NCBI GenBank assembly: GCA_963726455.1
Contig: CAVSCK010000003.1
Location: 672,001 to 736,000, forward strand
Direction: 5' to 3'
DNA: 64,000 nucleotides
Source of the DNA: an uncultured bacterium
GTDB taxonomy: Bacteria; Zixibacteria; MSB-5A5; CAIYYT01
In this document: positions 26,490-46,517 of the stretch, in pieces
Numbering within the stretch: position 1 is the stretch's first letter
Layout: every line of letters starts with the position of its first letter
Notes under the pieces: generated by a model
What the model saw: only the letters and a program-made list of their open reading frames with translations
Told to the model about the DNA's origin: nothing
Databases searched by the model: none
Position numbers and translations under genes: made by a program

Positions 26490-27122
26490 TTACTTGGTGC
26501 GTCTGCGCAGGGTGCCGATTCCGGCCAGTCCCAGACCAAGCAGCATCAGAGTGCCCGGTTCCGGAACTACGTTCTGATCCTGCTCTTGACAGTAATCAAG
26601 CATTAGGATGGAGCGGTCAAGGCGGAACCTACGCTCGCCGGCCGTGATTCTGCAGTCGATCGTACCGTCGTTCCAGAATCCCGGTTCGTCTACGTGAGCC
26701 AGGTTGTACGTGGTATTATCCTGCAGGTGATCGTTCAACGGATCCCAGTCGAAGGTGCCTTCGATGCGAATCTCGTTTTCATTATTATCGATTTCATAAC
26801 CGTCGATCCAGAGACGCGCTCTGAGAATGTGATCCGGCGGTACTGAGAGGCCGTTCGGAAGCGTGTGGGCCCAGTTCATGTCGTCCGGATAGCCATGCTG
26901 AGTGCCAATCCACTCACCAAGTGGACCTGAGGCCGAGCTGCCGTCGTAGAAGTTGACCAGCGACGCATAATCATAGGTATGATTGTCACCGCTGAACCCA
27001 TACGCGGCTCCGCCAGCGAAGTCCCAGTTCGAGTAGATGAATTCGGCCGAGGCGAATGCCATTAGCTGCGCAGGCACCAACATGAGTGCGAGTACAACTA
27101 GACCATAGACTAGAAATTTCAT
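26490..27122 (-). CDS. PEP-CTERM sorting-domain surface protein
   Basis: Signal peptide MKFLVYGL...; C-terminal 'VPEPGTLMLLGLGLAGIGTLRRRTK'; GGAGG RBS. Confidence 0.92.
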   Translation of the reverse strand: MKFLVYGLVVLALMLVPAQLMAFASAEFIYSNWDFAGGAAYGFSGDNHTYDYASLVNFYDGSSASGPLGEWIGTQHGYPDDMNWAHTLPNGLSVPPDHILRARLWIDGYEIDNNENEIRIEGTFDWDPLNDHLQDNTTYNLAHVDEPGFWNDGTIDCRITAGERRFRLDRSILMLDYCQEQDQNVVPEPGTLMLLGLGLAGIGTLRRRTK

Positions 27123-27170
27123 TTGTCCTCCTGAATAAAACCAAAGTTTTATGTTGTCGCGCACGTCAAA

Positions 27171-27186
27171 AGCAATTGACGTGCCA
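27171..27186 (-). promoter_or_regulatory. Sigma-54 (-24/-12) promoter of the PEP-CTERM gene
   Basis: TGGCACGTCAATTGCT matches the TGGCACG-N4-TTGCW consensus exactly. Confidence 0.85.
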
Positions 27187-27272
27187 ATTCGCGATTGCGC
27201 GCATAACGCACGGTGTTTCAATGCGATACACATAGGAGAGGCACTAAGTCCCATCTTACCAAACATGCCAAA

Positions 27273-30747: not shown

Positions 30748-31284
30748 ATGAAGAGAATGTTTGGGTATCTGCTCGCACTGCTGCTGGTATTTCTCAGCAG
30801 CATTTTTCTGTTGAAGACAACGGCTCAGGCAGCGTCAAAGGGTGAATCCTTGCTCAACAAGGGTGATTCGATTGCCGTCTACATCGACGCTGAGGATTTC
30901 GACGCGATCAAGGCCTCCAAGGCCGGCGCCAAAGTAAAGATCAAGGTCTTGGACAACGTCGTACGATCCGGAGAAAAGCTGATCAACAAAGGTGAGCCGG
31001 TCTATGCGACACTCACTAAGAGGAGTCGTGGAGGCGGTTACGGTGGCGGAGGAAATATCACATTAGCCATCGACTCAACGCACTCCAGTGCCAAAACGAA
31101 GGTGCCTCTCAAGGGCCAGGTGACGCTCAAAGGGAAAGGCGCGGGCTTCATAAAGATATTCTACTATGTCCCGTTGTTCCCAATCGGCTGGCTTTTCAAG
31201 GGCTCGGATGTCGAATTTCCGGAGGGTAAGAACGTTTTCAAGCCGGTAGTCGCCGACGACACGCCCGTTTATTACGAACGGTAG
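30748..31284 (+). CDS. Secreted hypothetical protein (possible TrbI/VirB10-like beta domain)
   Basis: Signal peptide and GGAGG RBS; pattern 'V.DNV...G..LI.KG.PV.A......GGG.I.L.ID....VPL.G ... KG.DV.FPEG'. Confidence 0.65.
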   Translation: MKRMFGYLLALLLVFLSSIFLLKTTAQAASKGESLLNKGDSIAVYIDAEDFDAIKASKAGAKVKIKVLDNVVRSGEKLINKGEPVYATLTKRSRGGGYGGGGNITLAIDSTHSSAKTKVPLKGQVTLKGKGAGFIKIFYYVPLFPIGWLFKGSDVEFPEGKNVFKPVVADDTPVYYER

Positions 31285-31397: not shown

Positions 31398-32216
31398 TCA
31401 GACTTCCGGGGACAGCAAGGTTTCCAGCACTGCCACATCCTTGTTCTCAATCGCTGAAGCCAATGCCTGAAGATAGGCGTCGATATCGTTCGCTTGCATA
31501 CAACATACCTTGATGTGGTTCTCACCAACAGCGGCGAACTCAAGCGCGCCTGCTTCCGGCGCTTCATATCTTGAAGAATATGCCAGTGACAAATCGAGAT
31601 CTTCTGACGGCTTGAAAACAAATTCCGACCAATTGATGAGCTTGCGGCTGGCAGATGGCAGAAGTCTGATTAGCCGCAGGAGATATCCATTTGAATAGGG
31701 CGTATTCCTGTCGGCATACAGCACCAGCCGTTGACCGCTTAGCAAGGCAGCGAGATTCCTTCGATAGTCGTCGAGATCGATGTCAACCAACTCCGACAAC
31801 CAGACATCATCGCCGACCGGGTTCTCGATTTCGAGTTCACCAAAATTCGCCAACTGTTCGGCGGTTCCTCCCGAAATCAGAAAAGATTCCAGTTTGTGAG
31901 GGGAGTAGTTGAACGACTGATACTGATCGGAAAACAAAATTGCAGAATGCCTCAGTAACGCTCCCCAGCGGCCGGAGAAATCTCTGCCGACATGGCTAAC
32001 CTTGGTGATTGCGGCTTTCTCGTCATCGGGTGATTCACGATACCACTGAACCGAAATTGACGACTTGAATTCCTCGTTCTTGCAGTCACCAAACTGGTCA
32101 TAGAGATTTATCAGCCAGACCTGTAGCGCCTCCGTAATGCCATCGGACCGGTAGATCACATGCTGCGATCCCGGTGTATCGGGAAATGTACCGTATATCA
32201 GGTGGTCGATCTTCAT
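31398..32216 (-). CDS. GAP1-N-like domain protein (GTPase-associated; last gene of the T6SS operon)
   Basis: 'IDHLIYG....G...IYRS.G' and 'HVGRDFSGRWGALLRHSAI' resemble the GAP1-N2 signature 'G.D.SGR.G....H'; lies directly after the GTPase gene. Confidence 0.6.
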   Translation of the reverse strand: MKIDHLIYGTFPDTPGSQHVIYRSDGITEALQVWLINLYDQFGDCKNEEFKSSISVQWYRESPDDEKAAITKVSHVGRDFSGRWGALLRHSAILFSDQYQSFNYSPHKLESFLISGGTAEQLANFGELEIENPVGDDVWLSELVDIDLDDYRRNLAALLSGQRLVLYADRNTPYSNGYLLRLIRLLPSASRKLINWSEFVFKPSEDLDLSLAYSSRYEAPEAGALEFAAVGENHIKVCCMQANDIDAYLQALASAIENKDVAVLETLLSPEV

Positions 32217-32287: not shown

Positions 32288-34150
32288 TTAGGGTAACTTG
32301 GGTGGCTGTCCCGATTTGAGCTTGACGACAATCCCGTAATCCTTTCCGAAATCAAGGGTGTAGCCCTCGGTGAGCTTCGGATAGAAAGTTTCAATCGGAT
32401 TCTCGACGTCCTGTGGCACCGGTTCACCCGTGCTGGAAGGACTGAGGTCGATGAACTTCGCGTGCACCGGGGCGTTGCCTATTCCGGTCACCTGCTTTTC
32501 CACTTTGGGTGAATCACCTAGAAGATTCGCGAAGTCGACCGGTGGATTGTCACCGACCTGAATCACGACCTTGCTTTTCGGACGGAGGTTCTCGACTGCC
32601 AGAGTGATCTGGAACGGTAGTATCTGTGCCGTCGCCATGCCGGCCTTGAGTTGCGCAGGAGACGCCTCTACTTGCTTCACGAATACAGCATCGAGACTAT
32701 CCTTGGGATGATCCTGGAAAAGTTTGGTGATACCGGCTTCAAGCGCCGCCTGTTTATCGGTAGCCGGCAAAGTTGCCACCGAATCTTTCAGCCGCTTGAA
32801 ATCATCAGCAGCGGCTTTGGTTTTTTCATCGTAATTCGGCTTCGGCGGTTCTTTCTTTTCCTGTTCGGTTTTCTCGACAGAAATGCGACTATCAATAAAC
32901 TGCTGTCGTTCTTTTACAAACTGAATCAGCGGCGCGGCGCCGAAGAACTTGCTGACAGGCGTCTTGTCGTAGTAAGCGGTGTATTTCTCTTTGATGACTT
33001 TGGCCTGGTTCTCGGTGAATTGGCCGTTACTCGTCCGCAACTCGTCCACCAACTTGGTCTCCGCGCGGTCCAGCATGCTATAGAGCTTCAACTGATTGTA
33101 CAGGTTGACAATGCAGAACAGTGCCACCCACATCAAGCAGAGTGCAAACACCCACTTCACCAGGTATCGCCAGAATGCTTTGCGCTTATTGAACATGATG
33201 CGCCGGAATGCCCACTGGAGCGGATCGGCTACGCCGGACGAAGTCAAATCGCGCGGTGGCTCAATATCGCCAGTCGGCCGCTTGGCGATCGCGCCGGTCG
33301 AAGACACGAAGAAGACCTGGAAATCGAGCGTATAGGCACTCACCGAGTCAATGAAATTCGCCAAGGTGTGGCTGATACGCTCGGTCGTCTTGGCCCATAC
33401 CTCGCCAAAACGGCGGTTGTTGACTTTGACAAGTCCGCGGATGAAACTATCCTTGCGCCGGCCTTTGTATAGAGATGCACCACCCGGCACGAGATCGACG
33501 GGATTGATCTTTGAGAATCCGTCCAGGAAATCGGCCTTGGTAATCACGATACCCACCGGCACGCGCTTGGGCACGCAGTCATGCAGGTCGTGCAGGATGG
33601 TCTGAAATGCGGCGATCTGCTCCCGCAACAAGACATCAGTCTCTAGCACCGAAGCGTCAAGGAAGAACAAAGCCGCGCGCGCAAAGGGGAAGAAGCGCGC
33701 GAACTGTTTGCGTAACTCGCCCGGCTGGGCAATCGAGAGGGTTTCTCCCTTATAATCAACGGTATAGAACTTCACGCCTTTGCGAACCGACATGTCGAGG
33801 CCGAATCTGAGAATGCGCGTTTCGGACGTCATCGTCGGGAATTTGCGCTCCCCTTCGATCTCAACTTGCCGGCCTTCTTTGATGCGCAGCAATTTCCCGC
33901 GCATCATATTGTAGTTCTCGATCAGATTGGCGGCGGTATCATTGTCCAGAGGGGACAGTTTGAAATCTTCGTTGCCCTTTAACAATTCGTAGAGCACTGA
34001 GAAGTAAACCGTCTTGCCCGCGTTGGAATGCCCGAAGACGAGCACAACATTATCGTCATGATCAAATGGCGCGTCCGCTGCCTTGGGAGGCGCAGCCGAC
34101 TGCTTCTTGAAAATACCGAAGGCCTTCTTGACAAGTTCCAATGGGCTCAT
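32288..34150 (-). CDS. Membrane-anchored TRAFAC-type GTPase (double-GTPase-2-like domain, TM helix, extracytoplasmic domain)
   Basis: G1 GHSNAGKT, G2 PTMT, G3 DYKGE, G4 TKAD, G5 VSSTG and 'GVADPLQW'; TM helix YLVKWVFALCLMWVALFCIVNLY after a basic patch. Confidence 0.75.
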   Translation of the reverse strand: MSPLELVKKAFGIFKKQSAAPPKAADAPFDHDDNVVLVFGHSNAGKTVYFSVLYELLKGNEDFKLSPLDNDTAANLIENYNMMRGKLLRIKEGRQVEIEGERKFPTMTSETRILRFGLDMSVRKGVKFYTVDYKGETLSIAQPGELRKQFARFFPFARAALFFLDASVLETDVLLREQIAAFQTILHDLHDCVPKRVPVGIVITKADFLDGFSKINPVDLVPGGASLYKGRRKDSFIRGLVKVNNRRFGEVWAKTTERISHTLANFIDSVSAYTLDFQVFFVSSTGAIAKRPTGDIEPPRDLTSSGVADPLQWAFRRIMFNKRKAFWRYLVKWVFALCLMWVALFCIVNLYNQLKLYSMLDRAETKLVDELRTSNGQFTENQAKVIKEKYTAYYDKTPVSKFFGAAPLIQFVKERQQFIDSRISVEKTEQEKKEPPKPNYDEKTKAAADDFKRLKDSVATLPATDKQAALEAGITKLFQDHPKDSLDAVFVKQVEASPAQLKAGMATAQILPFQITLAVENLRPKSKVVIQVGDNPPVDFANLLGDSPKVEKQVTGIGNAPVHAKFIDLSPSSTGEPVPQDVENPIETFYPKLTEGYTLDFGKDYGIVVKLKSGQPPKLP

Positions 34151-35061
34151 CGGTACGTCTCCACGACACTATTGGTCTGTTTCAATTCAAGTATTTTCGC
34201 GCGGTGTTGCTTTTCCCAGAATGGACGCACACTCACCGCGGCATAAAGAAATAAGAGAGTCAGAACCAGATAGACGATGTAAACCGGCCAGCGGTCGCGA
34301 AGCACATGAAACACAAAGCGGTAATTGACCACCGACGTAATTGCCGAACCGATCGAATCGAAGAATTTCTTAATCGCCAGGACAAACCGGCTCTTGCCAC
34401 GATAGATATCGTTAACATTGAGATACCACGCCGCAAATTCGCTTTGGTCAGACATTCGACGAAGTTCTTCCTCGGGTGCAAACGAGCGAATGTCAGCTTT
34501 GCGCCCTTGCAATGTGCTGGCGGCGATGTGCAGCATCTTTTTCTGCCATGAATCAGTGCGAACAATTCTCGTAGCGGAGGAAGACACCTGATCTGTTTCG
34601 CGGAAATTGGCCGCAATTTGCGCGTAGCGATTCAGGAGCATCGACTTTAGCGCGTTTTCCTGCTTGCCAAAACGGCGGATTTTCTCGCCAAAAATCAGCG
34701 GCGCTACGGTCATTTCGATGAATTGGCTGTCGTCGGACGTGCCGCGCAATTTCTTGGCGGCCAAAAATGCGTTCTGGCATTGTTGCGGGGGGCGTCTGAC
34801 ATACCAGAAATACAGTGGCAGCAGGTTGGCTACCACCAGCGACAACGGCTGTGCCTGCCGGGGAACGGTATTGACGCGAAGCTTCAAGTGCTCGTCAATT
34901 ATGTTTCCATTTTCACCGGTCATGTCGAGGCGGTCCAGTTCATTGAAGTATGCCTCACTCTCGCGCAGAAACACGTCGGCCGAAAAATCCGGCTGTTGCT
35001 TCTCATAGCGATTGAGCTGGATGAAGATCGAATTGATCAGCGCTTTCAGTTTTTCCGACAT
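34147..35061 (-). CDS. Hypothetical protein with a single C-terminal TM helix (TssL-like topology)
   Basis: Helical soluble N-terminus and TM segment VYIVYLVLTLLFLYAAVSV near the C-terminus; 6 nt after tssK, with an ATGA overlap into the GTPase gene. Confidence 0.65.
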   Translation of the reverse strand: MSEKLKALINSIFIQLNRYEKQQPDFSADVFLRESEAYFNELDRLDMTGENGNIIDEHLKLRVNTVPRQAQPLSLVVANLLPLYFWYVRRPPQQCQNAFLAAKKLRGTSDDSQFIEMTVAPLIFGEKIRRFGKQENALKSMLLNRYAQIAANFRETDQVSSSATRIVRTDSWQKKMLHIAASTLQGRKADIRSFAPEEELRRMSDQSEFAAWYLNVNDIYRGKSRFVLAIKKFFDSIGSAITSVVNYRFVFHVLRDRWPVYIVYLVLTLLFLYAAVSVRPFWEKQHRAKILELKQTNSVVETYR

Positions 35062-35067
35062 ACGCTC

Positions 35068-36543
35068 TTATCGCGACCTGCTGAAGATCGCCACATGGTT
35101 CATCTTGACCGCTTCCAGCGCGGCGCGATCCACCTGTCCGTCGATAATTATATTCAGACGATCCAGCCGACTGCTCTTAAGCGGGAAATATTCGTTGGGC
35201 TGAATCAGCCAGAAGTCGGGATTTGTAACGTCGTCGACCGGCTTGCGTGCCACCGATGCGGCGGCGATGTCGTCAACTTCGTTGGCACCCAGGTATATGA
35301 TAACGTTGCTGGCATATTGAATCGGGAGCACCTTTTTGTCGAGCCGCACAATCACGTCCTCGGTACCGCGCGGATCGACACCGTCAATGATGATGTGGTG
35401 CCGATTGTTGCGGAATGAATACTTGACGGCGCCGTGATGTTGCAGAAGGAACCGGAAGCCGTCACGTTCGATTGAATCGGCAGCCCTTCCAGCGGCGCCA
35501 GAGGCATAATAGCTCAGAATTGCCGCGACAAACTTGAGCGCCTTCTCGGTGTCGTCAAAGAATTGCGTCATTTGATCGTAACCGTACTGGCGAGTCTGGT
35601 AGTCACGCAATTCAGGAAGGACCGTTCCGCCGGCAACAGTGCCCGAATCTACGGTCACTTGCGCATTGCGGACATATTCCCGCAACTCGGGATAAATCAG
35701 AAATCCCTGCTGAAATCCGCCCACGAGATCAGTAAAGGAATCTATCAAGGCGCGGCTGCCAACACCGGCAAAACCGTCGAACAAGCGATTGTAGCAGTAA
35801 TTCACAAAATGCAGCAGTGTCTCGGCCTGCAGGAAGACGCCGCGAATGGTTTCTTCCTCGGCTGCCGAGGGCCGGCTCTTCGTCTTGGCACGAACCTCGG
35901 CAATTGCCGCCAATCCGACCCGCTGAATCTCGTCGACCACTTTGCGGAGGCGCTCCATGCGCGAAACCACGGCCTTGCCACAGGTAGTATTCAGCACGGC
36001 AGGAACAAAGTCGGATCTGATTTCGAAGTCGTTTCCGGCGCGTACCAACTCCGTAATTTGAAATCCGCAGGATGAACTAAGACTCTCGGACGGGCCTACC
36101 GAAAGAGTCAGCCGCGGAACCTGGAACGGAAACCGACTCAACTGTTCGCCCGGAAGCGGGTCGCCAAACATTGTCCGATCTTGCGGCGCGGCATATAAGA
36201 AGATCGGCAGTCGCTCGCGAGATTCTTTGGCCAGATCGATCTTCAGTTCCACGGAGTGATACTTGGTGAAATCTTCATTGACATGTATCGGAGTTCCATT
36301 CGGCATCAGTGCGACGCACCGGGTTACTGATAAATAAAGGATGTTGCCGTCGCGGCGTAATTGCAGTTCCAGCGGTTCGTTGCGTATGGTCGCGGGTTTC
36401 GCAATACCATAGCCGCCGGCCAAGTTCGATGCCGCCCAGCGGTTGAGGTTGAGTGCGAAAGTCTCCTGCTGGTTCAGATGGACGCTGGATACCAGCATGC
36501 CATCAATCCAGTTAACTCCCCAAACATTGAATTCATCCATCAT
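35068..36543 (-). CDS. tssK: T6SS baseplate subunit TssK (Bacteroidota-type)
   Basis: N-terminal 'VNWIDGMLVS..HL.QQE', 'C.ALMPNG..I', 'R..FGDP' and 'DFVPA' motifs; position after tssG. Confidence 0.78.
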   Translation of the reverse strand: MMDEFNVWGVNWIDGMLVSSVHLNQQETFALNLNRWAASNLAGGYGIAKPATIRNEPLELQLRRDGNILYLSVTRCVALMPNGTPIHVNEDFTKYHSVELKIDLAKESRERLPIFLYAAPQDRTMFGDPLPGEQLSRFPFQVPRLTLSVGPSESLSSSCGFQITELVRAGNDFEIRSDFVPAVLNTTCGKAVVSRMERLRKVVDEIQRVGLAAIAEVRAKTKSRPSAAEEETIRGVFLQAETLLHFVNYCYNRLFDGFAGVGSRALIDSFTDLVGGFQQGFLIYPELREYVRNAQVTVDSGTVAGGTVLPELRDYQTRQYGYDQMTQFFDDTEKALKFVAAILSYYASGAAGRAADSIERDGFRFLLQHHGAVKYSFRNNRHHIIIDGVDPRGTEDVIVRLDKKVLPIQYASNVIIYLGANEVDDIAAASVARKPVDDVTNPDFWLIQPNEYFPLKSSRLDRLNIIIDGQVDRAALEAVKMNHVAIFSRSR

Positions 36544-36583
36544 CAGTTTCACCCATTTAGAACTTGAGGTGCAATATATCTTG

Positions 36584-37501
36584 TCATGCTGTTTCCCGCA
36601 AGAACGTCGAGAAACCCAGGTAAGCCGTACGAGATTCTTCCCCCGGCACAAACGGAGACACGCCGGGAACGAAGTTGTATCGCACCAGAGCGCGCTGATG
36701 CGCGGGCGCGAACAACACTGTCAGATTATCTACCAGATCCCGGCGCGTTCCGGTCGGCGCGAGATCGCGGATATCGGATATTTCGAGGCCATTTACATTT
36801 ATCATGAAAGTGGAGAAATTCTCCTCAAAGGTTGATCCCGGGACAAAATCACGTCCGAGCCGGGAGTTCGCCTTGCCGAGAGAATTTCGAAAAGGCTCGG
36901 GCACGAGATTCTCCTCCGGAATGTTTTCATCGACCGTAACCTGCTTCTTCAGGAATGCCGGCAGTACTCTCTCATAAAGCAGTTTCCTGCCACGGAAGAA
37001 CGGCGCGAAGAAACGTAGCAGGAGCAGGAATCGCCGGTCTTCCTTCGCTATGGACGGCAGATCGCCGCCGAAACGGTCCCAGTATAATAGCTCTGCATCG
37101 CTGTCGTCGATACAGAATAACAGTCTGAGTTTGAGAATGTGGAAGGCAATCCAGAAACGGTACGTGATAGTATCGAAGGCGCTCCAGAACTCAAGGTACT
37201 TGTTTTCCATGACTCCCGGGTGGTGGTCCGACTCATCCATCTGTTCCACGAAAAAGGTGTCAGGGAAATGGTTCTTGAAAGACGGCAGATATGCCGCCAC
37301 CACGCGCTCCTCACGCCTGGACGTACGCGCCGTAAGGGTGCGGATCGCCTCAATGTCGGTTACGAAACCGCCCTGAGCTTCATGACTGATAAATGCGAAT
37401 TCCGCCGCATCAATTCCCAGCGAAGCCAGCAGAAGTGAAAACTCGGTGAGACGGATATGCTCGTTGATGCGGTAATCTGTGGCGACAAAACCGGTTTTCA
37501 T
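36584..37501 (-). CDS. tssG: T6SS baseplate subunit TssG
   Basis: About 300 aa after tssF with an ATGA overlap; 'LG...SRLG.DFV.G' and terminal 'YLGFST.L' resemble T6SS-iii TssG. Confidence 0.72.
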   Translation of the reverse strand: MKTGFVATDYRINEHIRLTEFSLLLASLGIDAAEFAFISHEAQGGFVTDIEAIRTLTARTSRREERVVAAYLPSFKNHFPDTFFVEQMDESDHHPGVMENKYLEFWSAFDTITYRFWIAFHILKLRLLFCIDDSDAELLYWDRFGGDLPSIAKEDRRFLLLLRFFAPFFRGRKLLYERVLPAFLKKQVTVDENIPEENLVPEPFRNSLGKANSRLGRDFVPGSTFEENFSTFMINVNGLEISDIRDLAPTGTRRDLVDNLTVLFAPAHQRALVRYNFVPGVSPFVPGEESRTAYLGFSTFLRETA

Positions 37502-39252
37502 GCTTCCACCAATCGCGCTTCCAGATGCAGGTTAAGCGGCGTGTAGCTATCGAGATATTCTGAAAGGCGTTGAACCAGGAATCGCCGTTCATCATCGGAA
37601 ATCTTCACGTCAGTACGAAGTCGCACATCAACTATCACCGACGGCAACAACCCGCCGGCGGTGCGGCTGACTCCGCGCGCGGCTTTGGCTTCGACAATTC
37701 GACTGTCAAAGTTGCGCGTCAGATATTCGATTTCTCCCTCTGACAATGCCACGCCGTGGTTGCGCAGGAAGAACCCCGTCAGGCGCTTCATCTCTTCGCG
37801 CGAACGAACGTCCGAGCCACCCGACGAAGTCACCAGATTGCGGATAGTTTGTATCTGCGGATGCGGCTTTGCCAGTTCAAAATCGATTTCGGCGCCGATC
37901 CCGTTGCCACTGTTGCCCTCAGTCACGGAGTATTCTACCACCACGAAATCGGGCGACGCTTTGCCGGTGGGAACAAAATCAAATTTGATTTTCAGCCCGT
38001 CTTCTTCTTCCACAATCATATATTTGCGAGGATTTCCAAAGGCCGTGAGGTCGAGATGGTTCGAATACTCGTCGTCATTGGAATCCCAGACGCGGTCGAT
38101 CGAAAACAGCCGGTCCGGCAACGAACCCGCTTCTTCATCTTCATACTCGAAGAGGTTAACTTCCAGCACCGGCTGGCCCATCGTGTACTTATTGCGATGA
38201 TTTTTGCGGCGGTTGATCGCCAGAATCGTGTTGCTGTCGAAGAAACGGAACTTACGCAAATCGCCTACACGTTCGTCTCTGGCCAGATCGATTCGCAGCC
38301 ACAGACGCGGTGCCTTAAGGCCGCTGAAGTCGATGTGCGAAAACTTGCTTTGCAACTGAGGCGGCAAGAGCATCTTCTCTGCCTTCGCATATTGTTCCTG
38401 CGGAACATGCACAAAACCCTTGGCGGGCGCCAAATAGTGCTTGAAATGCCAGAGCAGACGGCCCGCAGTCAAGAAATCTGAACTGTACAGCCGACTCTGA
38501 AAACTGCTTTCGAGCTCAAATTCGCGGATATCGAGATGCTTGAATATCTCCAGTCGGTCATGGAAGTTTCCCGGCTTGAACGGTGGGGTACGTTGCCCCG
38601 TCGTCTCGACATGCCAATCTACCCAGTTGAGCATCTGTCCGGCCGGCAAGTCCGGTCCGGTATACAGTCTGATGGCGTCGATATCCTCAAGAGGCAAGCC
38701 GGTGGTTATTCCTATATATATGGTACCGCCCAATGGTGGTGGGGCGCTTCGCTGCATCGTGCGGTAGTGCGATGACTGCAGCGTTTCTTCCCACTTGTCC
38801 GCCTCCGGCGGGAGCGCCTTGAGCACGCGGAAATAGTCGCCCGATACGAAAAATACCAGATCGGCGTTGATATCGAAAATGTCCTGGTCATGAAGAGGAT
38901 AGAACGAATAATCGCGCTGCTGCGCGCCTGGCAAGCGACAGATGAATTCCATTTCGGTGTCGACCTGTGCGCGCTTGTCGGAGCAGGAACAAGATAACAT
39001 GGTGAATGCCGGTATGGGCCGACGCAGTCCCGTGACAAAGAAATTCGTGATCATCGTGTCGATGACGGTCTCGGCGGCCTGCTTGAGTTTGTCTTCAGTC
39101 TGAATCGCGTGGAAGGCGAAGCCCTTGAGCATGAGCAGAAGCGCCGGATCCAACTGTTTCTCGCCTGATGGAACCTGATAGCCCCAGAAACGCAGCCGGT
39201 CTACAAGTTCATTATATACGCGCTCTTCGCGATCTGTCCACTTGGCGTTCAA
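37498..39252 (-). CDS. tssF: T6SS baseplate subunit TssF
   Basis: 'WG.......LDP.L.LML', 'RPIPAF', 'N....INR', 'T.G..GNGI' and 'SSGG......EE' motifs; baseplate-J-like C-terminus. Confidence 0.78.
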   Translation of the reverse strand: MNAKWTDREERVYNELVDRLRFWGYQVPSGEKQLDPALLLMLKGFAFHAIQTEDKLKQAAETVIDTMITNFFVTGLRRPIPAFTMLSCSCSDKRAQVDTEMEFICRLPGAQQRDYSFYPLHDQDIFDINADLVFFVSGDYFRVLKALPPEADKWEETLQSSHYRTMQRSAPPPLGGTIYIGITTGLPLEDIDAIRLYTGPDLPAGQMLNWVDWHVETTGQRTPPFKPGNFHDRLEIFKHLDIREFELESSFQSRLYSSDFLTAGRLLWHFKHYLAPAKGFVHVPQEQYAKAEKMLLPPQLQSKFSHIDFSGLKAPRLWLRIDLARDERVGDLRKFRFFDSNTILAINRRKNHRNKYTMGQPVLEVNLFEYEDEEAGSLPDRLFSIDRVWDSNDDEYSNHLDLTAFGNPRKYMIVEEEDGLKIKFDFVPTGKASPDFVVVEYSVTEGNSGNGIGAEIDFELAKPHPQIQTIRNLVTSSGGSDVRSREEMKRLTGFFLRNHGVALSEGEIEYLTRNFDSRIVEAKAARGVSRTAGGLLPSVIVDVRLRTDVKISDDERRFLVQRLSEYLDSYTPLNLHLEARLVEA

Positions 39253-39255
39253 ATG

Positions 39256-39603
39256 CTAGATCTCCCAGGAAAGGTCAAAGCGTTGCCCGTCACGAGCGGT
39301 GCCATATACGCGACAAGTAAAGGTGGCAGTGATGGTCTCTTCAACCTTGTCGGATATTGTCACGTTTACGGAGATGCCCATGTACCGCCGGAATTGTTCG
39401 ATGACGTGATTGCGAACTTCAGTCTTAAGGTCGGTGGAATATTCGGGAGTAAAGTATGCCGAACGACAGCCCAACTCGGGATCAGGGCGATAGCTGCCCA
39501 GCTCGGTTTCAATGAGAAACCGGGCAAATTCCTCCGATTGGCTGCTGCGCAGGAAGCGGCAGTCTTTTATTTCTAATGGTACCCGAAGCGCTTCGTCGGC
39601 CAT
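39256..39603 (-). CDS. tssE: GPW/gp25-family baseplate protein TssE
   Basis: 'LI.T.LG.YR.DP.LGC' gp25 motif; 115 aa between vgrG and tssF. Confidence 0.75.
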   Translation of the reverse strand: MADEALRVPLEIKDCRFLRSSQSEEFARFLIETELGSYRPDPELGCRSAYFTPEYSTDLKTEVRNHVIEQFRRYMGISVNVTISDKVEETITATFTCRVYGTARDGQRFDLSWEI

Positions 39604-39606
39604 AGT

Positions 39607-41466
39607 TTAGTTTAGTGAAATCGGCGATCCCTTGACGGTAACCGGTCCTTTCCCGCTAATATCCATCATTGCCGCACTCTGTTGCAGGTTCCCCTGCGCA
39701 TCCAGCGTCATCATGCCGCTGCTTTTGACTTCGGCGCCGCCGCCGCCTGCTTTGATCTTGCAGGAAGTCTTGGCGTCAATCGACACGTTCTGCGCCTCCA
39801 ACTTGAAATCACCGTCGGCCTTAAGAGTAATATTACCTTTGACGGTGAGGTTGTAATCTTTATCGGCAGTGATGTTGATTGTATTCTCTTTCGAATCTAT
39901 GATCATCGTGTTCTTGCCGGTGCGATCTATAATCTTGATCTTACCCGAGCCATCTTTATCATCGATGGCGATCTGGTGCCCCGAACGTGTATAGATAACC
40001 TTGAGATCATTCTTGCTGGCTTCGCCGTCGCTGCCCTTCGGATCGATTGCACTTTGCGGCGGCTTGTCGGTGCCATTCCACATCGCCCCCAGCACGATCG
40101 GCATGTTGGGATCGCCCATTTCAAAGGCGACCAAAACCTCGTCCGCAATTTCGGGCATGAAGTAGATACCTCTATTATTTCCGGCATACCCACTGATCGT
40201 GCGCAGCCAGGGACTGATCAGGTCGCTGCCATTTTCACCCTTGGCAGGGAATTTTACTTTGACGCGTCCGCGTAAGTCCGGATCAACATTATCGGTGACG
40301 ATCGCGGTTATCGGATCGGTACGCACTTCATGCTTGACCTGCGGCCAGGGCGGACAGGCGCTTTCCAGCGGGCTTGCGGTCACAAAATTATGGTAATCGG
40401 TGCCGGTCTCGATATGGTGCATGATTGAGGTTATGATAAAGACGCCCGTGTAGGTGTCGCCCATGCCTTCAAGTTGAATCGCGTCCCCAACCTTCAGTGA
40501 CGGGACGTTAGTTTGCAGGTGACATTCAGTCAACGAGCCAAGTTGCTCGGCCTGCATCGCTTCCGTGACTTGCTTTTCTTGCGCCGCCTTGGAATCGCCG
40601 CGCGTGGGAAGTATCGCTGACGACACCTTGCCCATATTCTGTCCCGAGGCGTTGTAGGCCTTCTTGGCTATCCCCGAGAATTGCGTTTGGGGAGCCGGCT
40701 GGTTCTTTTCGATTACGCTCTTGGCGGCCTCGTCCCAGGTGTAGTTCTTGTACTTGAAGCCGGTCACATTCATTTTGAGATTCGCCGAGCCAATGTGTTT
40801 CTGCCAGGTCAGAGTATGAGTGTTCCGGCTTTTCTTCTCCTCGACGACCAGCTTCTTGCCGTCATAGAACACCCAGCCCGGATAAGTCTTCCATCCAGAT
40901 GTCAGATATTCCCAGTCGGTCAAGCCCCATTTGGTCCAGAAATCTCTGGTGGCGGCGCCGCTAACTGAGATTGACCCGGTATCGATATTGTATTGACCCA
41001 TAATCGTGCGGACGATGTCCTCAAATGACATATTCTCAAAGAAGACGTATCCCCGGCTCTGATCGGTGAGAATCGTCGGGCTCATGGCTTCGATTACGAT
41101 TCTGTTCATTTCACCGCCGGTGTTGGAAAACCCGACGTTCGTAATCAATCCAAAAAATTCAAGTGCCTCTCCGGCGGCGACATACTCGTCGGCGGGAGTG
41201 ATCTTAAGACTCACGCTTTTGCCGATCGTATCCTGATACTTGGTGGTCGACACAAACTCCCGGCCCTGGTTGGCGGCCTCGATGTCGAGCGAAAATTCCA
41301 GCACCAACCGATGATGAGCAAAGACGCTTTGCTCAAGCCGGAACGACTGCAACGGCCAGTTGACGGCGACGTTGGCTATCATAACCGTGGCTGACACCAC
41401 GCAGCGTGAGTGCACGTCGGCTTCAGTCATTTGCGGTCGGTTACTATTGGGATCAAGTTCCGGCAT
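39607..41466 (-). CDS. vgrG: VgrG spike protein (Bacteroidota-type, no C-terminal extension)
   Basis: gp27-like N-terminus; gp5 OB fold 'A.VTDN.DP..RGRVKVKFP...SPWLR....AG..RG.YFMPE..DEVLVAFE.GDP..P.VLG.MWNG'; 'TRSGH.I..DD'; beta-helix ending ISLN. Confidence 0.92.
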   Translation of the reverse strand: MPELDPNSNRPQMTEADVHSRCVVSATVMIANVAVNWPLQSFRLEQSVFAHHRLVLEFSLDIEAANQGREFVSTTKYQDTIGKSVSLKITPADEYVAAGEALEFFGLITNVGFSNTGGEMNRIVIEAMSPTILTDQSRGYVFFENMSFEDIVRTIMGQYNIDTGSISVSGAATRDFWTKWGLTDWEYLTSGWKTYPGWVFYDGKKLVVEEKKSRNTHTLTWQKHIGSANLKMNVTGFKYKNYTWDEAAKSVIEKNQPAPQTQFSGIAKKAYNASGQNMGKVSSAILPTRGDSKAAQEKQVTEAMQAEQLGSLTECHLQTNVPSLKVGDAIQLEGMGDTYTGVFIITSIMHHIETGTDYHNFVTASPLESACPPWPQVKHEVRTDPITAIVTDNVDPDLRGRVKVKFPAKGENGSDLISPWLRTISGYAGNNRGIYFMPEIADEVLVAFEMGDPNMPIVLGAMWNGTDKPPQSAIDPKGSDGEASKNDLKVIYTRSGHQIAIDDKDGSGKIKIIDRTGKNTMIIDSKENTINITADKDYNLTVKGNITLKADGDFKLEAQNVSIDAKTSCKIKAGGGGAEVKSSGMMTLDAQGNLQQSAAMMDISGKGPVTVKGSPISLN

Positions 41467-41558: not shown

Positions 41559-41973
41559 TCATTTGCCTTTCCAGTCCTTCTTGTACTCGACACCGTTGAC
41601 ATCCACCAACTCGGCGGAAATCTCGAAGTACTCGTACATCTGCTCGTTCGGCATGGCCGACGTGGACGGAACGTGCTCTTCGTAGTGCGTGACAAAGCCG
41701 TTCTGCCACTTGAGAACCTTCAGTTCCTTCTTCAGGTTGGGATCCTTGAAGGTGATCTCACCGGCCTTGCGATTGACCTGCGAAGAGTCAAATGCCCAGC
41801 TGCGCGATGCCGACGTTGTCATCTGACTCGCGGCTGATCTTGATCTTCAGACCACACGGGATCGAACTGGGCTTGCCGTCCGTGGTGTCATGAGGCGTGA
41901 AGATTTCATAACTGACCGAGCGCACTTTGTCGAACTTCTCGCCGTCAATCTTGAGTTCTACTTCTTGTGCCAT
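41559..41973 (-). CDS. hcp: T6SS tube protein Hcp/TssD (Bacteroidota-type), one +1 frameshift near 41799
   Basis: Joined 137-aa product has 'DGKPSSIPCGLKIKISRES', 'GEITFK......K.LKWQNGFVTHYEE' and 'ISAE...VNG..Y.KDW', matching the T6SS-iii TssD pattern. Confidence 0.85.
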
Positions 41974-42082
41974 TGGTTGGCTTCCTCCTACTATCGTTTA
42001 CAGTCTCTGTTTCTCTGTTTCTGGGCTTCTTCCTGCCGCTTTCACCCATAACTGTCGAGATACCCCTCGGAGCGGTTCAGAA

Positions 42083-43497
42083 TTATTTTACCGCCGCCTG
42101 ACCCGACTCGTCGACCAGCGCTTCCAGCTTGACGACGTACTGCTTGATCGGCGTCTTGGTGTTGAGCGCCACTTCCAGCAACATCTGCTGGTTTTCGATC
42201 ATTTCGTTGGTCGCAATCACGTTGCAGGTAAAACCGTTGATCACTTTGTTCCGCTGCAGCAGACTCAGGAACTTGTTCAGATCGCCGTCGATCGACTTCT
42301 TCAGCTTGTCGTCGAAAGCCCTTGTAGACCTGCTGGTTGAGATAATTGCGCATCGTCTTGTAGATGTAATCGTAGGTGCGCTTGATCGTATAGTTGCGGA
42401 ACTTGGGATCCTTGCTCAGCGTGTCGGCGCCCATCGCCACGACATCACCCACATCACCCTGCCAGTTGAGCACGCAGTTGACACCCTTCTCGTTGATCTT
42501 GGTATTCTTGGCTTCCGACAATTTGATTCGAGTTCGCGAAACTCCGCCCAGCTTGCCGTTGGCTTTACCGGCGGACGGCGCCTGGATACCGATCTCGTTA
42601 TCATTTTTGTATATCAGGCCGGCTACCATCGGTGACGGCGGCAGCCACATCGCTTCTTTGTCGAAACGGCTTTCCGGCTTCTCGGCCTTGACGTAGTTGC
42701 CGAATACCGAGATGTACGCCTTGTACTCGTCGTTGCCACGCAGATCATCGTAAGCCGGATCGTCCAATTCGTCCGACCAGTTCTTCGTAAGTGTCGAAAT
42801 GTTTGAAGTCGGTCAGAATGTGCAGCTTGTTCGGCAGTCCCATATCGCGGGCGACCGTATCGATGTCTTTCACTGACCCCAGATAACCGGGAATAGCAGC
42901 AGAGGGCGTAGCTGTTCTTGATGTCGTAAAGCCCGTAGATATCGTGAATCTGCCGGTTGATATACTCGAACTTTTCACGATCGTTTGGATCGGTCAGATC
43001 GCTGATACCGACATTGGCGAAATAGGCATAGATTTCCGAATCCGGGCGCGCCGCAGCGTTCTGGAAGAACAGATCGATGCCGCGGATAGGCGGTTTCCAG
43101 CGGACGAATCGTTTCGTGAATGTTCTTCATGTTCTCGACGAGATTCTTGTCCGCCGCTTCTGATCATGTTGTCCAGTTTGTCCTTGAATTCGTCAGAGGT
43201 GACGTCATTCGGCCCTAACTGTTCAGCCCAAACTTGCAGACGCTGTTTCAGTTGGTTACGGCGATCTTTGAATTCGTCGGAAGTGAGAAACTTATTAAAT
43301 GATTCGTTCTTGGGATCGAGGAACTTTACACCCTCGATGTGTAAACCATCCTGGCTCTTGAAATGAGACAGGTGGTCTTTGACAAGCTCGTAGCCGACAA
43401 AACCGACTCCGAGGATGTCTTTTAGGTCAGCTTTTTCCTTGACCTTGGCTTCGGCTTGTGCCGATTCCTTTTGCAGATCTTTTTCTTCGTCAGCCAT
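42083..43497 (-). CDS. tssC: T6SS sheath large subunit TssC (DUF5458-type), five +1 frameshifts
   Basis: Reconstructed 469-aa product contains 'IRPLETAYRGIDLFFQN', 'AIPGYLGS', 'LTDF', 'LPPS..VAGLIY', 'AGK.NG' and 'RTYDYIYK'; insertions near 43161, 43085, 42901, 42774 and 42315. Confidence 0.85.
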
Positions 43498-43514
43498 GAC
43501 TTCCTCGCAGCGGT

Positions 43515-43970
43515 TTACAGTTGATCGATATATGATTTAATGACCTTCATGAATTCCGCCTTCTTCTCCGGCGATGACAGGTCTTTTTTCAGCTTGGAAT
43601 TCGGTTTTTCCAGCAGGTTTTTCAGATTGCGCAGGATTTCCACTTCGTTGTACTTCGACTGAAGGTACTCATTCTTCTGAATGATCTCCATCGAACCGAA
43701 ATCCTTCATCGCGTTGAATTCCAGTTCGACCGTTTCTTCCGAGCCATCCTGCTTCTGGACGGTAACTTCCTGCGACGGACGGAAGGTCGTGAAGACTTCC
43801 TTGAGATTCTTGCAGCGGGTCAATTCCGGTTCGCTCTCTTCGCGCGAATTCAATTTGGTCAAGTAGACCATTTTGTTCGACGGAAGCAGATCGACCGGAA
43901 TAGAATCGCTCTTTTCCTTGTACTCCGTAGTGCCGATATGGGGAGCGGCAATACGATACTGGTCTGCCAT
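43515..43970 (-). CDS. tssB: T6SS sheath small subunit TssB (Bacteroidota-type)
   Basis: 'EVFTTFRPSQEV......G......EF..MKDF' and terminal 'LSSPEKKAEF...I' match the T6SS-iii TssB pattern; AGGAGG RBS. Confidence 0.82.
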   Translation of the reverse strand: MADQYRIAAPHIGTTEYKEKSDSIPVDLLPSNKMVYLTKLNSREESEPELTRCKNLKEVFTTFRPSQEVTVQKQDGSEETVELEFNAMKDFGSMEIIQKNEYLQSKYNEVEILRNLKNLLEKPNSKLKKDLSSPEKKAEFMKVIKSYIDQL

Positions 43971-43986
43971 ATAACCTCCTTAGAAT

Positions 43987-45060
43987 CTATACTTTCACAA
44001 TTTCAAATTCGTCTTTGTTCATCCGCACTTCGACCTGCGAACCTTCCGGAAAGCGGCCGTCAATGATCGCCATCGAGAGCGGATTGAGAATCTCCTTTTC
44101 AATAAGCCGCTGCAATGGGCGCGCACCCATTTCGAAATTATACCCCCGGTCAGCCAGCGCCTTCTTGGCGTCAGCCGCACAGGTAATGGTCATCTTCTGA
44201 TCTTTAAGAATTCCATTGATCACTTTCAACTGGATATCGACGATAGCGCCGATGCCGACTTCTGACAACGGCCGGAAGATAATCCATTCCAGACGGTTCA
44301 GAAATTCGGGACGGAACTTGGTCTTCAGCACGTTCATCATTTCTTCCCGCTCGACCGGCTTGTTTTCGCGATAACAGTCCAGAATATAGTGGGCGCCGAA
44401 GTTCGAGGTCAGAATTATCATCGCGTTGGTGAAATCGATCGTGTTCCCCTGCCCGTCGGTCAGTCGGCCGTCGTCCATGATCTGCAGCATGATGTTGAAA
44501 ACATCGGGGTCCGCCTTTTCGACTTCGTCGAAAAGTACTACCGAAAAAGGATTGCGCCGCACTTTTTCGGTCAACAAACCACCCTGATCGTAGCCGACAT
44601 ATCCCGGCGGCGCGCCGATCAGCTTGGCGACGGAGTGCTTCTCCATATATTCCGACATATCAAACCGGACGATATTCGATTCATCGTTAAAAAGATATTC
44701 CGCCAATGTCTTCGCCAATTCGGTCTTGCCGGTACCGGTCGGTCCCAGGAATAGGAATGAGCCAATCGGGCGGTTATGCCGCTTGATTCCCGAGCGGGAA
44801 CGCCGTACCGCTTCCGAAATTGTCTTGATCGCGGAATCCTGGTCGACCACGCGTTTCTGCAGGTAGTCTTCCATATGCAGCAGCTTGGTCTTTTCATCTT
44901 CCATCATTCGCGACACCGGAATTTTGGTCCAGCGGGAAATGACAAAGGCCACGTCTTCAGGAGACAGTGTGGGATCGGTCTTGAAGACGAACTGTTCCAG
45001 TCGCTCCATCTTCTGAATGTTTTCCTTAAACCTGCTTATTTGCGTTTGTTCTTTTTCCAT
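43987..45060 (-). CDS. ClpV/TssH C-terminal half (AAA+ D2)
   Basis: SRWTKIPV, Walker A GPTGTGKT, pore loop GAPPGYVGY, Walker B LFDEVEKA and GARPLQR; no IGF loop. Confidence 0.88.
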   Translation of the reverse strand: MEKEQTQISRFKENIQKMERLEQFVFKTDPTLSPEDVAFVISRWTKIPVSRMMEDEKTKLLHMEDYLQKRVVDQDSAIKTISEAVRRSRSGIKRHNRPIGSFLFLGPTGTGKTELAKTLAEYLFNDESNIVRFDMSEYMEKHSVAKLIGAPPGYVGYDQGGLLTEKVRRNPFSVVLFDEVEKADPDVFNIMLQIMDDGRLTDGQGNTIDFTNAMIILTSNFGAHYILDCYRENKPVEREEMMNVLKTKFRPEFLNRLEWIIFRPLSEVGIGAIVDIQLKVINGILKDQKMTITCAADAKKALADRGYNFEMGARPLQRLIEKEILNPLSMAIIDGRFPEGSQVEVRMNKDEFEIVKV

Positions 45061-45098
45061 ATTTCCCACTCAGTTTGATCGTGCTATCAAAGCAACGC

Positions 45099-46517
45099 TT
45101 ACTTGACCCGATCTTTCCAGGGTGCAAAGAGCTCATCGAATTCTTCATTAAACGCCTGTAGCTTCGACTTGATTTCCGGAGCGATCTTGGCGTCACTGTC
45201 GGTCTTAATACTGTCGCCTAGTTCCTGATTTAGTTCAGCGGCCATCTTCTTCAGCCCTTCCAGACTGTTTTTTGTGCGCGTACAGTTGAGTCGGAACGAC
45301 GCACAGGCCTCATCCAAAAGATCAATGGCCTTGTCGGGAAGGAAGCGGTCGCCGATGTATCGTTGCGACAGCCGAATTGACTCGTCCACGACCGAATCGG
45401 GAATGGCCAGACTGTGATGCTTGCTATACACGTTTCGGACGCCGGCCAGGATTTCCTGGGCTTCGTTGAATTTCGGCTCTTCCACCATCACACGTTGGAA
45501 ACGCCGATCAAGCGCCTTATCCTTTTCGATATATTTGCGATATTCTTCGTTCGTAGTCGCACCGATAACCTTAAACGCACCGCGTGCCAGTGCCGGTTTC
45601 AGCAGGTTCGCTGCATCCATACCACCGGCAGGATTGCCCGCCCCTACCAGCGTATGCACCTCATCGATGAACAATACGAGGTTACCTTTGCCTTTGGACA
45701 ATCTGGATACGAGGTTGTTGAATCTTTCCTCGAATTCGCCTTTATATTTGGCTCCAGCCACCAATTGTCCCAAATCGAGATTTAGAATGACTGAATCGTG
45801 AAGTTCGGGGGTGGTCTGCTTGTTGACGATCTGTAGCGCCAGTCCTTCCACCAGAGCCGACTTGCCAACTCCCGGCGGACCAACCAGAATCGGGTTGTTT
45901 TTCCGGCGGCGAATCAGCACCCGGCTGATATTGTAAATATCTTCCTGCCGCCCAAAAAAGTTGTCCAGCTCGCCTTTGCGGGCCTTCTCCGTAAGGTCTA
46001 CGCAGTACTTTACACCTTCGATGCCGACAGCGGTTTCACCGTCCTCGGTCGTGACCTGTGTTCCAGCGATTGACTGCACGACCTTCATGTCAGCCATCGC
46101 GTCAATTATCTTGCCTTCATCGAAATCGAGTCGGCGTAGGATTTGTTCCGATAGTGGCGAATCCTTTGAGACCAGCACCATCAGCACATGCTCTGGACGA
46201 ACTTCGGAATCGGAGTACTTCTCGGCTTTGTTGCCGGACGCAACCAACAGAGACTGCAGCGCCGGAGCTGCGGCGGGTTTGACTTCGTCGGTGGACAGCT
46301 TGCGCATTTTCGACAACTCATCCGCCAGCAAAGCTTCAAAATACTCGGGCTTCTTCCCAAGTTGCTTGAAAATGGCAGCGAGTTCGCCCCCTTCGTCGCG
46401 CAGCAACACGAGGAAGAAGTGGTTGGGAGTGATCTCGGCATGGAAGTAACTCTTCGCAAGTTCCTGAGCCCGCCGAATGCAATTTGTCAAGGTCGCAGAA
46501 TACGATCCTAAATCCAT
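45099..46517 (-). CDS. ClpV/TssH N-terminal half (Clp-N repeats plus AAA+ D1)
   Basis: [43 protein letters not shown] and [14 protein letters not shown] motifs; ends at TAA 45099. Confidence 0.88.

Follow-up and report, generated by a model that had tools for sequence, protein, structure and literature searches.

A DO-GTPase2-type GTPase with a membrane anchor, encoded after tssK, is a probable component of a Zixibacteria type VI secretion system variant

To our knowledge, the membrane complexes described for type VI secretion systems (T6SS) are of two kinds, TssJLM and TssNQOPR, the latter reported in 2024. The subject of this analysis is a 620-amino-acid (aa) GTPase that is encoded within a T6SS operon of an uncultured Zixibacteria bacterium, on a window of 64,000 nucleotides (assembly GCA_963726455.1, contig CAVSCK010000003.1, forward-strand positions 672,001 to 736,000); all positions given below are those of the window. 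In the T6SS-iii of Bacteroidota, the membrane complex is TssNQOPR, which includes the five-transmembrane (TM) protein TssN and no nucleoside triphosphatase (NTPase), and the word “GTPase” occurs 0 times in the main text of its description (Bongiovanni et al. 2024, PMC10781749), and an earlier, sequence-only reading of the window held that T6SS-iii has no such component. For TssM of Agrobacterium tumefaciens, the relevant passages of the published account report hhhhDxxG and (N/T)KxD motifs, hydrolysis of GTP, and a requirement for nucleotide binding and hydrolysis in the recruitment of Hcp to TssM-TssL (PMC3346141). For the G domain, the closest known systems are the “GTPase-centric” ones of Kaur, Burroughs, Iyer, and Aravind (2020, eLife, PMC7159879): in the sections devoted to them, these authors present the DO-GTPases as a family of the TRAFAC class whose partner is a GAP1 protein encoded downstream, characterize such pairs as switch or sensor cores, note a conserved glutamate in the Walker B motif, and report that some GTPases of the GAP1-N2 type are TM-anchored, with PEGA, SH3, or beta-sandwich domains past the C-terminal TM helix. 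In the main text of that paper, as distinct from its supplements, “t6ss” occurs 0 times and “type VI” appears in one reference only.

The GTPase is probably a bitopic inner-membrane protein and an obligate part of a T6SS variant of Zixibacteria and some Krumholzibacteria-labelled genomes, in which it would serve as a GTP-gated anchor or switch. Judged by its gene content, this variant has a sheath and tube of the PF17541/PF17642 type and lacks TssJLM as well as recognizable TssN, TssO, and TssR; the GTPase apparently stands in place of the usual membrane-anchor proteins. The gene and the predicted parts of its product are as follows.

32288 to 34150, minus strand: the inner-membrane GTPase (P0001), 620 aa, defined by its open reading frame (ORF), translation, and full-length homologues
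33281 to 34054, minus strand: cytoplasmic G domain, aa ~33 to 290, DO-GTPase2-like, with G1 GHSNAGKT, G3 DYKGE, G4 TKAD, and G5 VSSTG
33107 to 33193, minus strand: basic patch FNKRKAFWR and single TM helix, aa 320 to 348, from hydropathy, the lysine/arginine (K/R) count, and a long helix (309 to 373) in the model
32291 to 33106, minus strand: predicted periplasmic part, aa 349 to 620, with helical hairpins followed by a beta-sandwich-like domain and a conserved PPKLP-type tail

The intact 620-aa ORF spans exactly 32288 to 34150 on the minus strand, and the plus strand across the same interval is full of stops. Homologues are full length, with 620 to 640 aa at 48 to 83% identity and 680 to 745 aa at ~30%, and their alignment covers 100% of the GTPase. 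All five strings that had been read as a complete G1-G5 set are present (GHSNAGKT at aa 40 to 47, PTMT at 105 to 108, DYKGE at 132 to 136, TKAD at 204 to 207, and VSSTG at 282 to 286). Because the G-motif columns are invariant across 23 homologues at 23 to 83% identity (G40, H41, G45, K46, T47, D132, Y133, G135, K205, D207, V282, T285, and G286), these motifs are not the product of chance. The G2 region is the softer part of the set: PTMT is only plausible as G2, from its location preceding strand 2. F104 and P105 are invariant among the 23 homologues, as is T72, and T108 alternates between T and S.

The basic patch (aa 320 to 328) and the one TM helix named in the sequence-only reading were likewise recovered. 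A single segment reaches a Kyte-Doolittle value of at least 1.6 (aa 330 to 348, hydropathy 2.47), and the 15 residues on its two sides contain 6 K/R before and 2 after. Across the family, the corresponding means are 5.18 and 1.86, with the N-terminal side richer in 54 of the 57 sequences that have such a segment; 12/69 gave none at the 1.6 threshold. Because the K/R excess precedes the helix, the N terminus is predicted to be cytoplasmic and the C terminus periplasmic. An AlphaFold2 (AF2) model built from the 23-row alignment (mean predicted local distance difference test [pLDDT], 76.4) comprises a Rossmann-like G domain, a long helix at 309 to 373, helices between 380 and 510, and strands between 512 and 613, in agreement with the proposed extracytoplasmic part of about 270 aa, helical and then beta-rich. 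Blocks of the periplasmic part mostly have a pLDDT of 80 to 91. This is the most variable portion of the GTPase in the 23-homologue alignment; P620, at the end of the P-x-L-P-type C-terminal tail, is nearly invariant. No fold or family could be assigned to aa 350 to 620, for which the ESM Atlas gave no usable match and the VIA list was occupied by the G domain. A search of the GTPase profile against PDB sequences at E ≤ 10 returned no GTPase or TssM chain; a weak match of the C-terminal beta part to FnBPA had an E value of 0.035. In NCBIfam, no family matched the GTPase or the 304-aa, 289-aa, or 178-aa proteins encoded next to it.

The TRAFAC order, from G1 GxxxxGK[ST] through G3 DxxG and G4 [NT]KxD to a G5 loop, is present in full in the GTPase, and the predicted model of the G domain has the small-GTPase alpha/beta fold. 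When the model was searched against PDB with Foldseek, 137 hits passed E ≤ 1e-3, the top ones being atlastin, G-alpha, Nog1, SR-beta, and EngB. With motifs, fold, and TM helix all found, the characterization of the protein as a membrane-anchored TRAFAC GTPase holds, and the profile comparisons indicate that the G domain is of the DO-GTPase2 type. Pfam family DO-GTPase2 (PF19993) matches 23/23 aligned family members at E ≤ 0.01 (best, 1.7e-7), and more distant members exceed its cut-off, by scores of up to 47 bits; among the same 23 proteins, DO-GTPase1 matches 9, Gtr1/RagA matches 3, and IcmF-related_N matches 3 (best, 4.9e-3). An hhalign comparison of the cytoplasmic part (80 sequences) with DO-GTPase2 proteins from outside T6SS loci gave 99.9% with E 3.4e-37 over G1 to G4; these comparison proteins had been retrieved with P0001, and their independent Pfam matches are at 1e-8 to 1e-11. 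In the ESM Atlas, the neighbors of aa 25 to 325 were DO-GTPase2 and DO-GTPase1 clusters at 0.90 to 0.92, with no IcmF cluster among the matches listed. Because two of the non-T6SS relatives carry a hydrophobic stretch shortly past a G5 of the F-x-S-S-K type, the layout of a G domain followed by a TM helix appears not to be peculiar to the T6SS-linked members.

Comparison with the DO-GTPase/GAP1-N2 systems (PF19993, PF19975, and PF20013) shows both likeness and departure. The G domain belongs to the same TRAFAC family, and, as in members described in the above-mentioned sections of PMC7159879, the protein is TM-anchored with a predicted extracytoplasmic domain that is beta-sandwich-like, and a candidate GAP1-type gene lies directly downstream, here the GAP1-N2-like ORF at 31398 to 32216. 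Unlike those systems, the GTPase is single rather than one of a paralogous pair, has no zinc ribbons, and is embedded in a T6SS operon; the downstream protein has 272 aa and is N2-like alone, with no GAP1-M or GAP1-C match; and no FNIII domains, tubulin/vWA partners, or variable effectors were found in the window with Pfam and NCBIfam. The Walker-B glutamate may also differ in being unconserved, if E136 of DYKGE, which is kept in 20/69 family members, is the residue that Kaur et al. mean.

The immediate neighbors of the GTPase gene are the following.

35068 to 36651, minus strand: TssK-like baseplate protein (match to TIGR03353 under the cut-off, E 1.1e-8), with a conserved place immediately before the 304-aa gene
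34147 to 35061, minus strand: 304-aa tail-anchored all-alpha protein, from its TM helix at 260 to 278, its ATGA overlap with the GTPase gene, and its AF2 model
31398 to 32216, minus strand: GAP1-N2-like cytoplasmic protein (PF20013), 272 aa from the conserved M18 start (289-aa ORF as listed, to 32267)
30748 to 31284, plus strand: 178-aa secreted protein of the ~175-aa family, with a signal peptide, from its N-terminal hydrophobic segment and family match

The order ClpV-TssB-TssC-VgrG-TssF-TssG-TssK-304-aa protein-GTPase recurs in related loci. In 79 loci from species-representative genomes, the titles of which are mostly Zixibacteria, with some Ignavibacteria, three Krumholzibacteria, two GN15, and one Deferrimicrobium, order and strand are maintained wherever DNA is available. 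A further 80 metagenome loci were found with a more distant alignment. Where the locus extends 3 kb or more upstream, a same-strand TssK is present no farther than 4 kb upstream of the GTPase in 65/65 genome and 45/47 metagenome loci (110/112), across 25 to 83% identity, the two metagenome exceptions being L158 and L170. The homologues thus occur almost always in T6SS loci; the sequence-only reading had named the opposite outcome, homologues mostly outside such loci, as telling against it. Across 151 genomes sampled from the phylum, the GTPase was found in 79, the TssK type of the window in 78, and both in 78, and the tallies per family agree; the sole genome with the GTPase only (G131) is 88% complete. 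TssM (PF14331 above the cut-off) was found in 16 of the 151, only one of which (G112) also carries the GTPase. This one-to-one pairing with the TssK type and the near exclusivity with TssM would be expected of a core part of the system, accessory regulators being usually patchier in distribution.

Elsewhere, the GTPase occurs in 8/61 genomes of the phylum to which one Krumholzibacteria-labelled locus belongs. The family as a whole is small: of 1.84 billion searched, 65 representatives pass E ≤ 1e-3, and 48 of these also pass E ≤ 1e-10. The genome that carries the window (3.64 Mb, 5 contigs, 100% complete) contains no PF14331 match other than the GTPase itself at 18 bits and no DotU match in Pfam searches; the three TssNQOPR components searched for, TssN, TssO, and TssR, also gave no match at E ≤ 0.01, a weak negative in that no control genome passed the cut-off.

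In two loci, the GTPase gene is detached from the operon. In genome G085, it lies (locus L087, G085:C1:2188000-2207000) ~670 kb from the main T6SS cluster, where a 316-aa ORF (L088, 7910 to 8860), which matches the 304-aa partner family in size, directly follows tssK. Both there and at L158, the GTPase comes after a protein combining PEGA and an outer-membrane beta-barrel and one or two PD40 propeller proteins, and after it come the small secreted protein, encoded on the opposite strand, and a PAAR protein that carries Ig-like domains. From these gene neighborhoods, the split-locus setting is an envelope and T6SS context, and the PEGA/outer-membrane-barrel and PD40 proteins are candidate periplasmic or outer-membrane partners of the GTPase.

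The 304-aa protein is all-alpha in its AF2 model (pLDDT, 83.9), with a C-terminal TM helix at 260 to 278 and a 26-residue tail; TssL is also tail-anchored. The stop TGA of its ORF overlaps the start ATG of the GTPase gene as ATGA, as had been noticed earlier, and an ORF of 300 to 350 aa ends just upstream of the GTPase in loci with upstream DNA. The 304-aa family has no similarity to TssL in hhalign (0.4%), and a structure search with the 304-aa protein gave no significant fold match.

On the other side of the GTPase, the downstream ORF most likely starts at M18 (window position 32216), because the orthologue alignment places the start there. The match of the window ORF to GAP1-N2 (PF20013) scores 17.7 bits (E 3.7e-3) against a cut-off of 24; the same family matches 6/6 orthologues (E 1.5e-5 to 5.5e-4), and for one of these the score, 25.5 bits, clears the cut-off. 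The GAP1-N2-like family shares the invariant block DFSGRWGALLRH, with two arginines within it. In the GAP1-N2-like protein, R100 and R106 may serve as arginine fingers. A complex prediction for the G domain (aa 25 to 325) and the GAP1-N2-like protein scored 0.14, which is evidence neither way. A faint DENN-domain match (E 0.0065, residues 116 to 193) was seen in one orthologue (L003:11894-12703) and, if real, would fit a GTPase regulator.

In the 91 loci with at least 2 kb of downstream DNA, the GAP1-N2-like gene is present in 17, and the ~175-aa signal-peptide family follows the GTPase in 81. The latter family occurs in 116/159 loci overall, of which 100 have it on the strand of the GTPase and 16 on the other strand, and includes the 178-aa ORF of the window (hmmsearch, E 4e-10; hhalign, 94.7%). 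Kinship between the ~175-aa family and the GAP1-N2-like proteins was considered and rejected (hhalign, 10.5%). The 178-aa protein contains a stretch rich in glycine as well as a C-terminal segment that is hydrophobic (FIKIFYYVPLFPIGWLF), and it matched no family in Pfam, NCBIfam, or PADLOC; its homologue at L158 shows a faint PAAR_motif match (E 0.0056).

These components can be arranged in a mechanism. The GTPase and the 304-aa tail-anchored protein would form an inner-membrane platform beneath the TssK baseplate, and the nucleotide state of the GTPase, GTP or GDP bound, would gate docking, assembly, or firing. The GAP1-N2-like protein may set or read that state in this clade. The periplasmic part of the GTPase could contact the secreted protein of the 178-aa family and, in some lineages, the PD40 and PEGA/outer-membrane-barrel proteins.

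Several points weigh against an obligate, GTP-gated anchor. A structural role and a purely regulatory one would look the same in sequence. The family assignment is softened by the score of the GTPase itself against PF19993 (19 bits, E 1.2e-3), which is below the cut-off of 27, and by the limited conservation of E136, as a Walker-B glutamate is a hallmark of DO-GTPases; the claim of a complete G1-G5 set is weakened at this residue too. Because its gene is present in 17/91 loci, the GAP1-N2-like protein cannot be a universal regulator. No outer-membrane component is encoded within the T6SS cluster of the window, and we know of no cultured host. Finally, if the frameshifts in the sheath, tube, and ClpV genes of the window are real, the T6SS may be inactive in this strain. 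Seven frameshifts fall within 41800 to 45100 (minus strand), five +1 changes in tssC, one in hcp, and one in clpV, none of them in a homopolymer. Relative to locus L002, the disruptions of tssC are single-base insertions near 43160, 43086, 42895, 42776, and 42314 and that of hcp is an insertion near 41802; ClpV is split into frames of 472 and 360 aa. Because the breaks are all +1 insertions, an assembly artefact is suggested, the alternative being real decay of these genes. No disrupted ORF was seen in uvrA, in the malic enzyme gene, or over the 9 kb that extend from vgrG as far as the GAP1-N2-like gene.

The main rival to an anchoring role, somewhat unlikely in our estimate, is that the GTPase is purely regulatory, a sensor of the DO-GTPase/GAP1 type whose outer domain would detect a signal from the envelope or periplasm and which would then permit assembly or firing, with anchoring left to the 304-aa protein or to unlinked proteins. 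The TagQRST-PpkA-Fha pathway is a regulatory parallel in T6SS-i. Membership in the DO-GTPase2 family and the GAP1-N2-like neighbor are what such a sensor would predict, such pairs being switch or sensor cores in the sections of PMC7159879 cited above, and no part of the protein varies more than its periplasmic domain. Moreover, the GTPase is detached in G085 and L158, yet the 304-aa gene remains beside tssK. However, the GTPase tracks the TssK type one to one and is nearly exclusive with TssM, as would fit a core part, and the cluster encodes no other envelope-spanning candidate in Pfam or NCBIfam searches.

The resemblance to TssM raises a different possibility. Some families of the phylum carry, in other genomes, a canonical T6SS-i instead, with the gene order Fha-TssJ-TssK-DotU-TssM, and the TssM genes of these genomes served as the reference set (3/16 are cut to 407 to 430 aa). 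Like tssM in the TssJLM-type T6SS-i, the GTPase gene is placed after tssK and a gene for a tail-anchored protein, so that the “TssM position” assigned to it earlier is appropriate. The products also share a GTPase-like P-loop domain on the cytoplasmic side, in which DxxG and TKxD occur, followed by a TM helix and a periplasmic part, and the two are nearly mutually exclusive across the phylum. Unlike TssM, the GTPase is about half as long, has a single TM helix in place of three, and is accompanied by no TssJ or TssL homologue, and the similarity of the G domains is weak and not specific. The complete zixibacterial TssM frames have 1107 to 1370 aa, about twice the 620 aa of the GTPase as had been anticipated, match PF14331 at 233 to 300 bits, and contain two N-terminal TM helices, the motifs GPSAxGKS, DTAGR, TKCD, and YFTSGTQ, and a third TM helix.

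At the sequence level, the GTPase scores 16.7 bits against IcmF-related_N (PF14331; cut-off, 25), over profile positions 45 to 83 of 259 only, and neither PF06761 nor IcmF_helical (PF21070) matches it or the 23 family members at E ≤ 0.01. In hhalign, the full-length comparison of the GTPase family with TssM gave 12.8% (E 0.0022), with G4-G5 alone aligned and nothing TssM-like in the periplasmic part, whereas the domain-limited comparison (80 versus 8 sequences) gave 87.9% (E 3.2e-6), its 130 columns reaching from strand 4 past G4 to G5. The aligned pieces include ITKADFLDGF versus FTKCDLVSGF at G4 and FFVSSTG versus YFTSGTQ at G5. As controls, the housekeeping GTPases of the same genome were compared with the GTPase family; two reached 94% (E 1.4e-7, 131 columns) and 92% (E 5.8e-7), and six others remained below 20%. 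With the TssM profile as the query in 10 comparisons, the GTPase family was best at 87.3%, a housekeeping MMR_HSR1-type protein reached 81.6%, and the non-T6SS DO-GTPase2 proteins reached 36.6%. The GTPase and the TssM NTPase are thus both TRAFAC G domains, and a specific kinship is possible because they share TKxD-hh-GF, a long helical G4-G5 insert, and a G5 of the form F-[TV]-S-[SG]-T.

It is quite unlikely, on these data, that the GTPase is a reduced TssM orthologue or an ancestor-like form, with the 304-aa protein as a diverged TssL, the periplasmic arm lost or not yet gained, and the G domain and third TM helix co-descended. The gene order after tssK, the order of G domain, TM helix, and periplasmic part, the long insert, the domain-limited hhalign match, the first rank of the GTPase family among the 10 comparisons, the subthreshold PF14331 matches in 3/23 members, and the GTP hydrolysis and the hhhhDxxG and (N/T)KxD motifs reported for TssM in the cited passages of PMC3346141 would all be accommodated by common descent. 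Yet the housekeeping GTPases match the GTPase family at least as well and TssM nearly as well, the full-length comparison is poor, TssM sequences have no DO-GTPase2 match in Pfam, the two N-terminal TM helices and any PF06761 or IcmF_helical match are missing, the 304-aa family does not resemble TssL, and the two kinds of system occur in one phylum as distinct, non-intergrading forms. Of the earlier description of the GTPase as a minimal TssM analogue or ancestor, “analogue” is plausible from position and layout; “ancestor,” or a homologous minimal TssM, found no support, the hhalign similarity being no better than that of housekeeping GTPases.

The relation to T6SS-iii is similarly mixed. The sheath and tube genes match PF17541 and PF17642, and in both systems a membrane protein gene adjoins tssK and there are single-pass proteins that have periplasmic domains; in contrast, TssN lacks an NTPase, and TssN, TssO, and TssR gave the weak negative described above in the genome of the window.

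That the GTPase belongs to an independent DO-GTPase conflict or defense system merely travelling beside the T6SS genes is highly improbable, as this idea has family membership alone in its favor, and against it stand the constancy of position, orientation, and ATGA coupling across 25 to 83% identity, the TssK type in 78/79 GTPase genomes, a PADLOC result limited to a trivial P-loop match, and the occurrence of the 178-aa protein and malic enzyme genes, rather than a variable effector array, next downstream in the window.

In a search of PMC and bioRxiv literature, no account of a T6SS-linked DO-type GTPase turned up, nor any of a zixibacterial T6SS; the novelty would lie in a third type of T6SS membrane module and in the setting in which the DO-GTPase occurs. 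As a tentative and broader proposal, Zixibacteria and allied uncultured phyla may possess a third, independently built T6SS envelope module, in which a membrane-anchored Ras-like G protein forms the core and, with a GAP1-like partner of its own, makes baseplate docking or firing depend on a G-protein cycle, and the NTPase of TssM may perhaps be a remote descendant of TM-anchored DO-type GTPases. If true, this would link a core part of the T6SS to the GTPase switches of bacterial conflict systems and place the DO-GTPase/GAP1 pair, so far a predicted immunity switch only, in a defined machine with a measurable function. The module bears on how the baseplate is attached to the envelope and on the role of the TssM NTPase domain. 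The variant is widespread (79/151 sampled genomes of the phylum), and its sole membrane NTPase is a compact G domain with complete motifs, which makes it a clean system for asking if nucleotide switching gates T6SS assembly.

The minus-strand operon of the window runs in the order ClpV (two ORFs), TssB, TssC (fragmented), Hcp (fragmented), VgrG, a 115-aa ORF, TssF-like protein, TssG, TssK, the 304-aa protein, the GTPase, and the 289-aa ORF; downstream of it lie the convergent 178-aa ORF and then the gene for malic enzyme. The members upstream of tssK are listed below.

43987 to 46517, minus strand: ClpV (Pfam), frameshifted
43515 to 43970, minus strand: TssB (Pfam)
~42087 to 43497, minus strand: TssC (Pfam), frameshifted
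~41560 to 41973, minus strand: Hcp (Pfam), frameshifted
39607 to 41466, minus strand: VgrG (Pfam/NCBIfam), order kept in related loci
39256 to 39603, minus strand: 115-aa ORF at the TssE position, flanked by vgrG and the tssF-like gene, no family match
37498 to 39252, minus strand: TssF-like protein (Pfam/NCBIfam), order kept in related loci
36584 to 37501, minus strand: TssG (Pfam/NCBIfam), order kept in related loci

Intact orthologues of the fragmented genes at locus L002 match PF17541 (TssC) at 3.6e-50 and PF17642 (TssD) at 3.6e-20, families that we take to be built on the T6SS-iii of Bacteroidota. In known clusters, tssE adjoins tssF; the 115-aa ORF (39256 to 39603) is conserved by tblastn in a close group only, at 56 to 88% identity. 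Past the malic enzyme and GNAT genes, a 258-aa protein (26490 to 27266, minus strand) carries a PEP-CTERM sorting signal (E 2.7e-7) and is seemingly unrelated to the T6SS.

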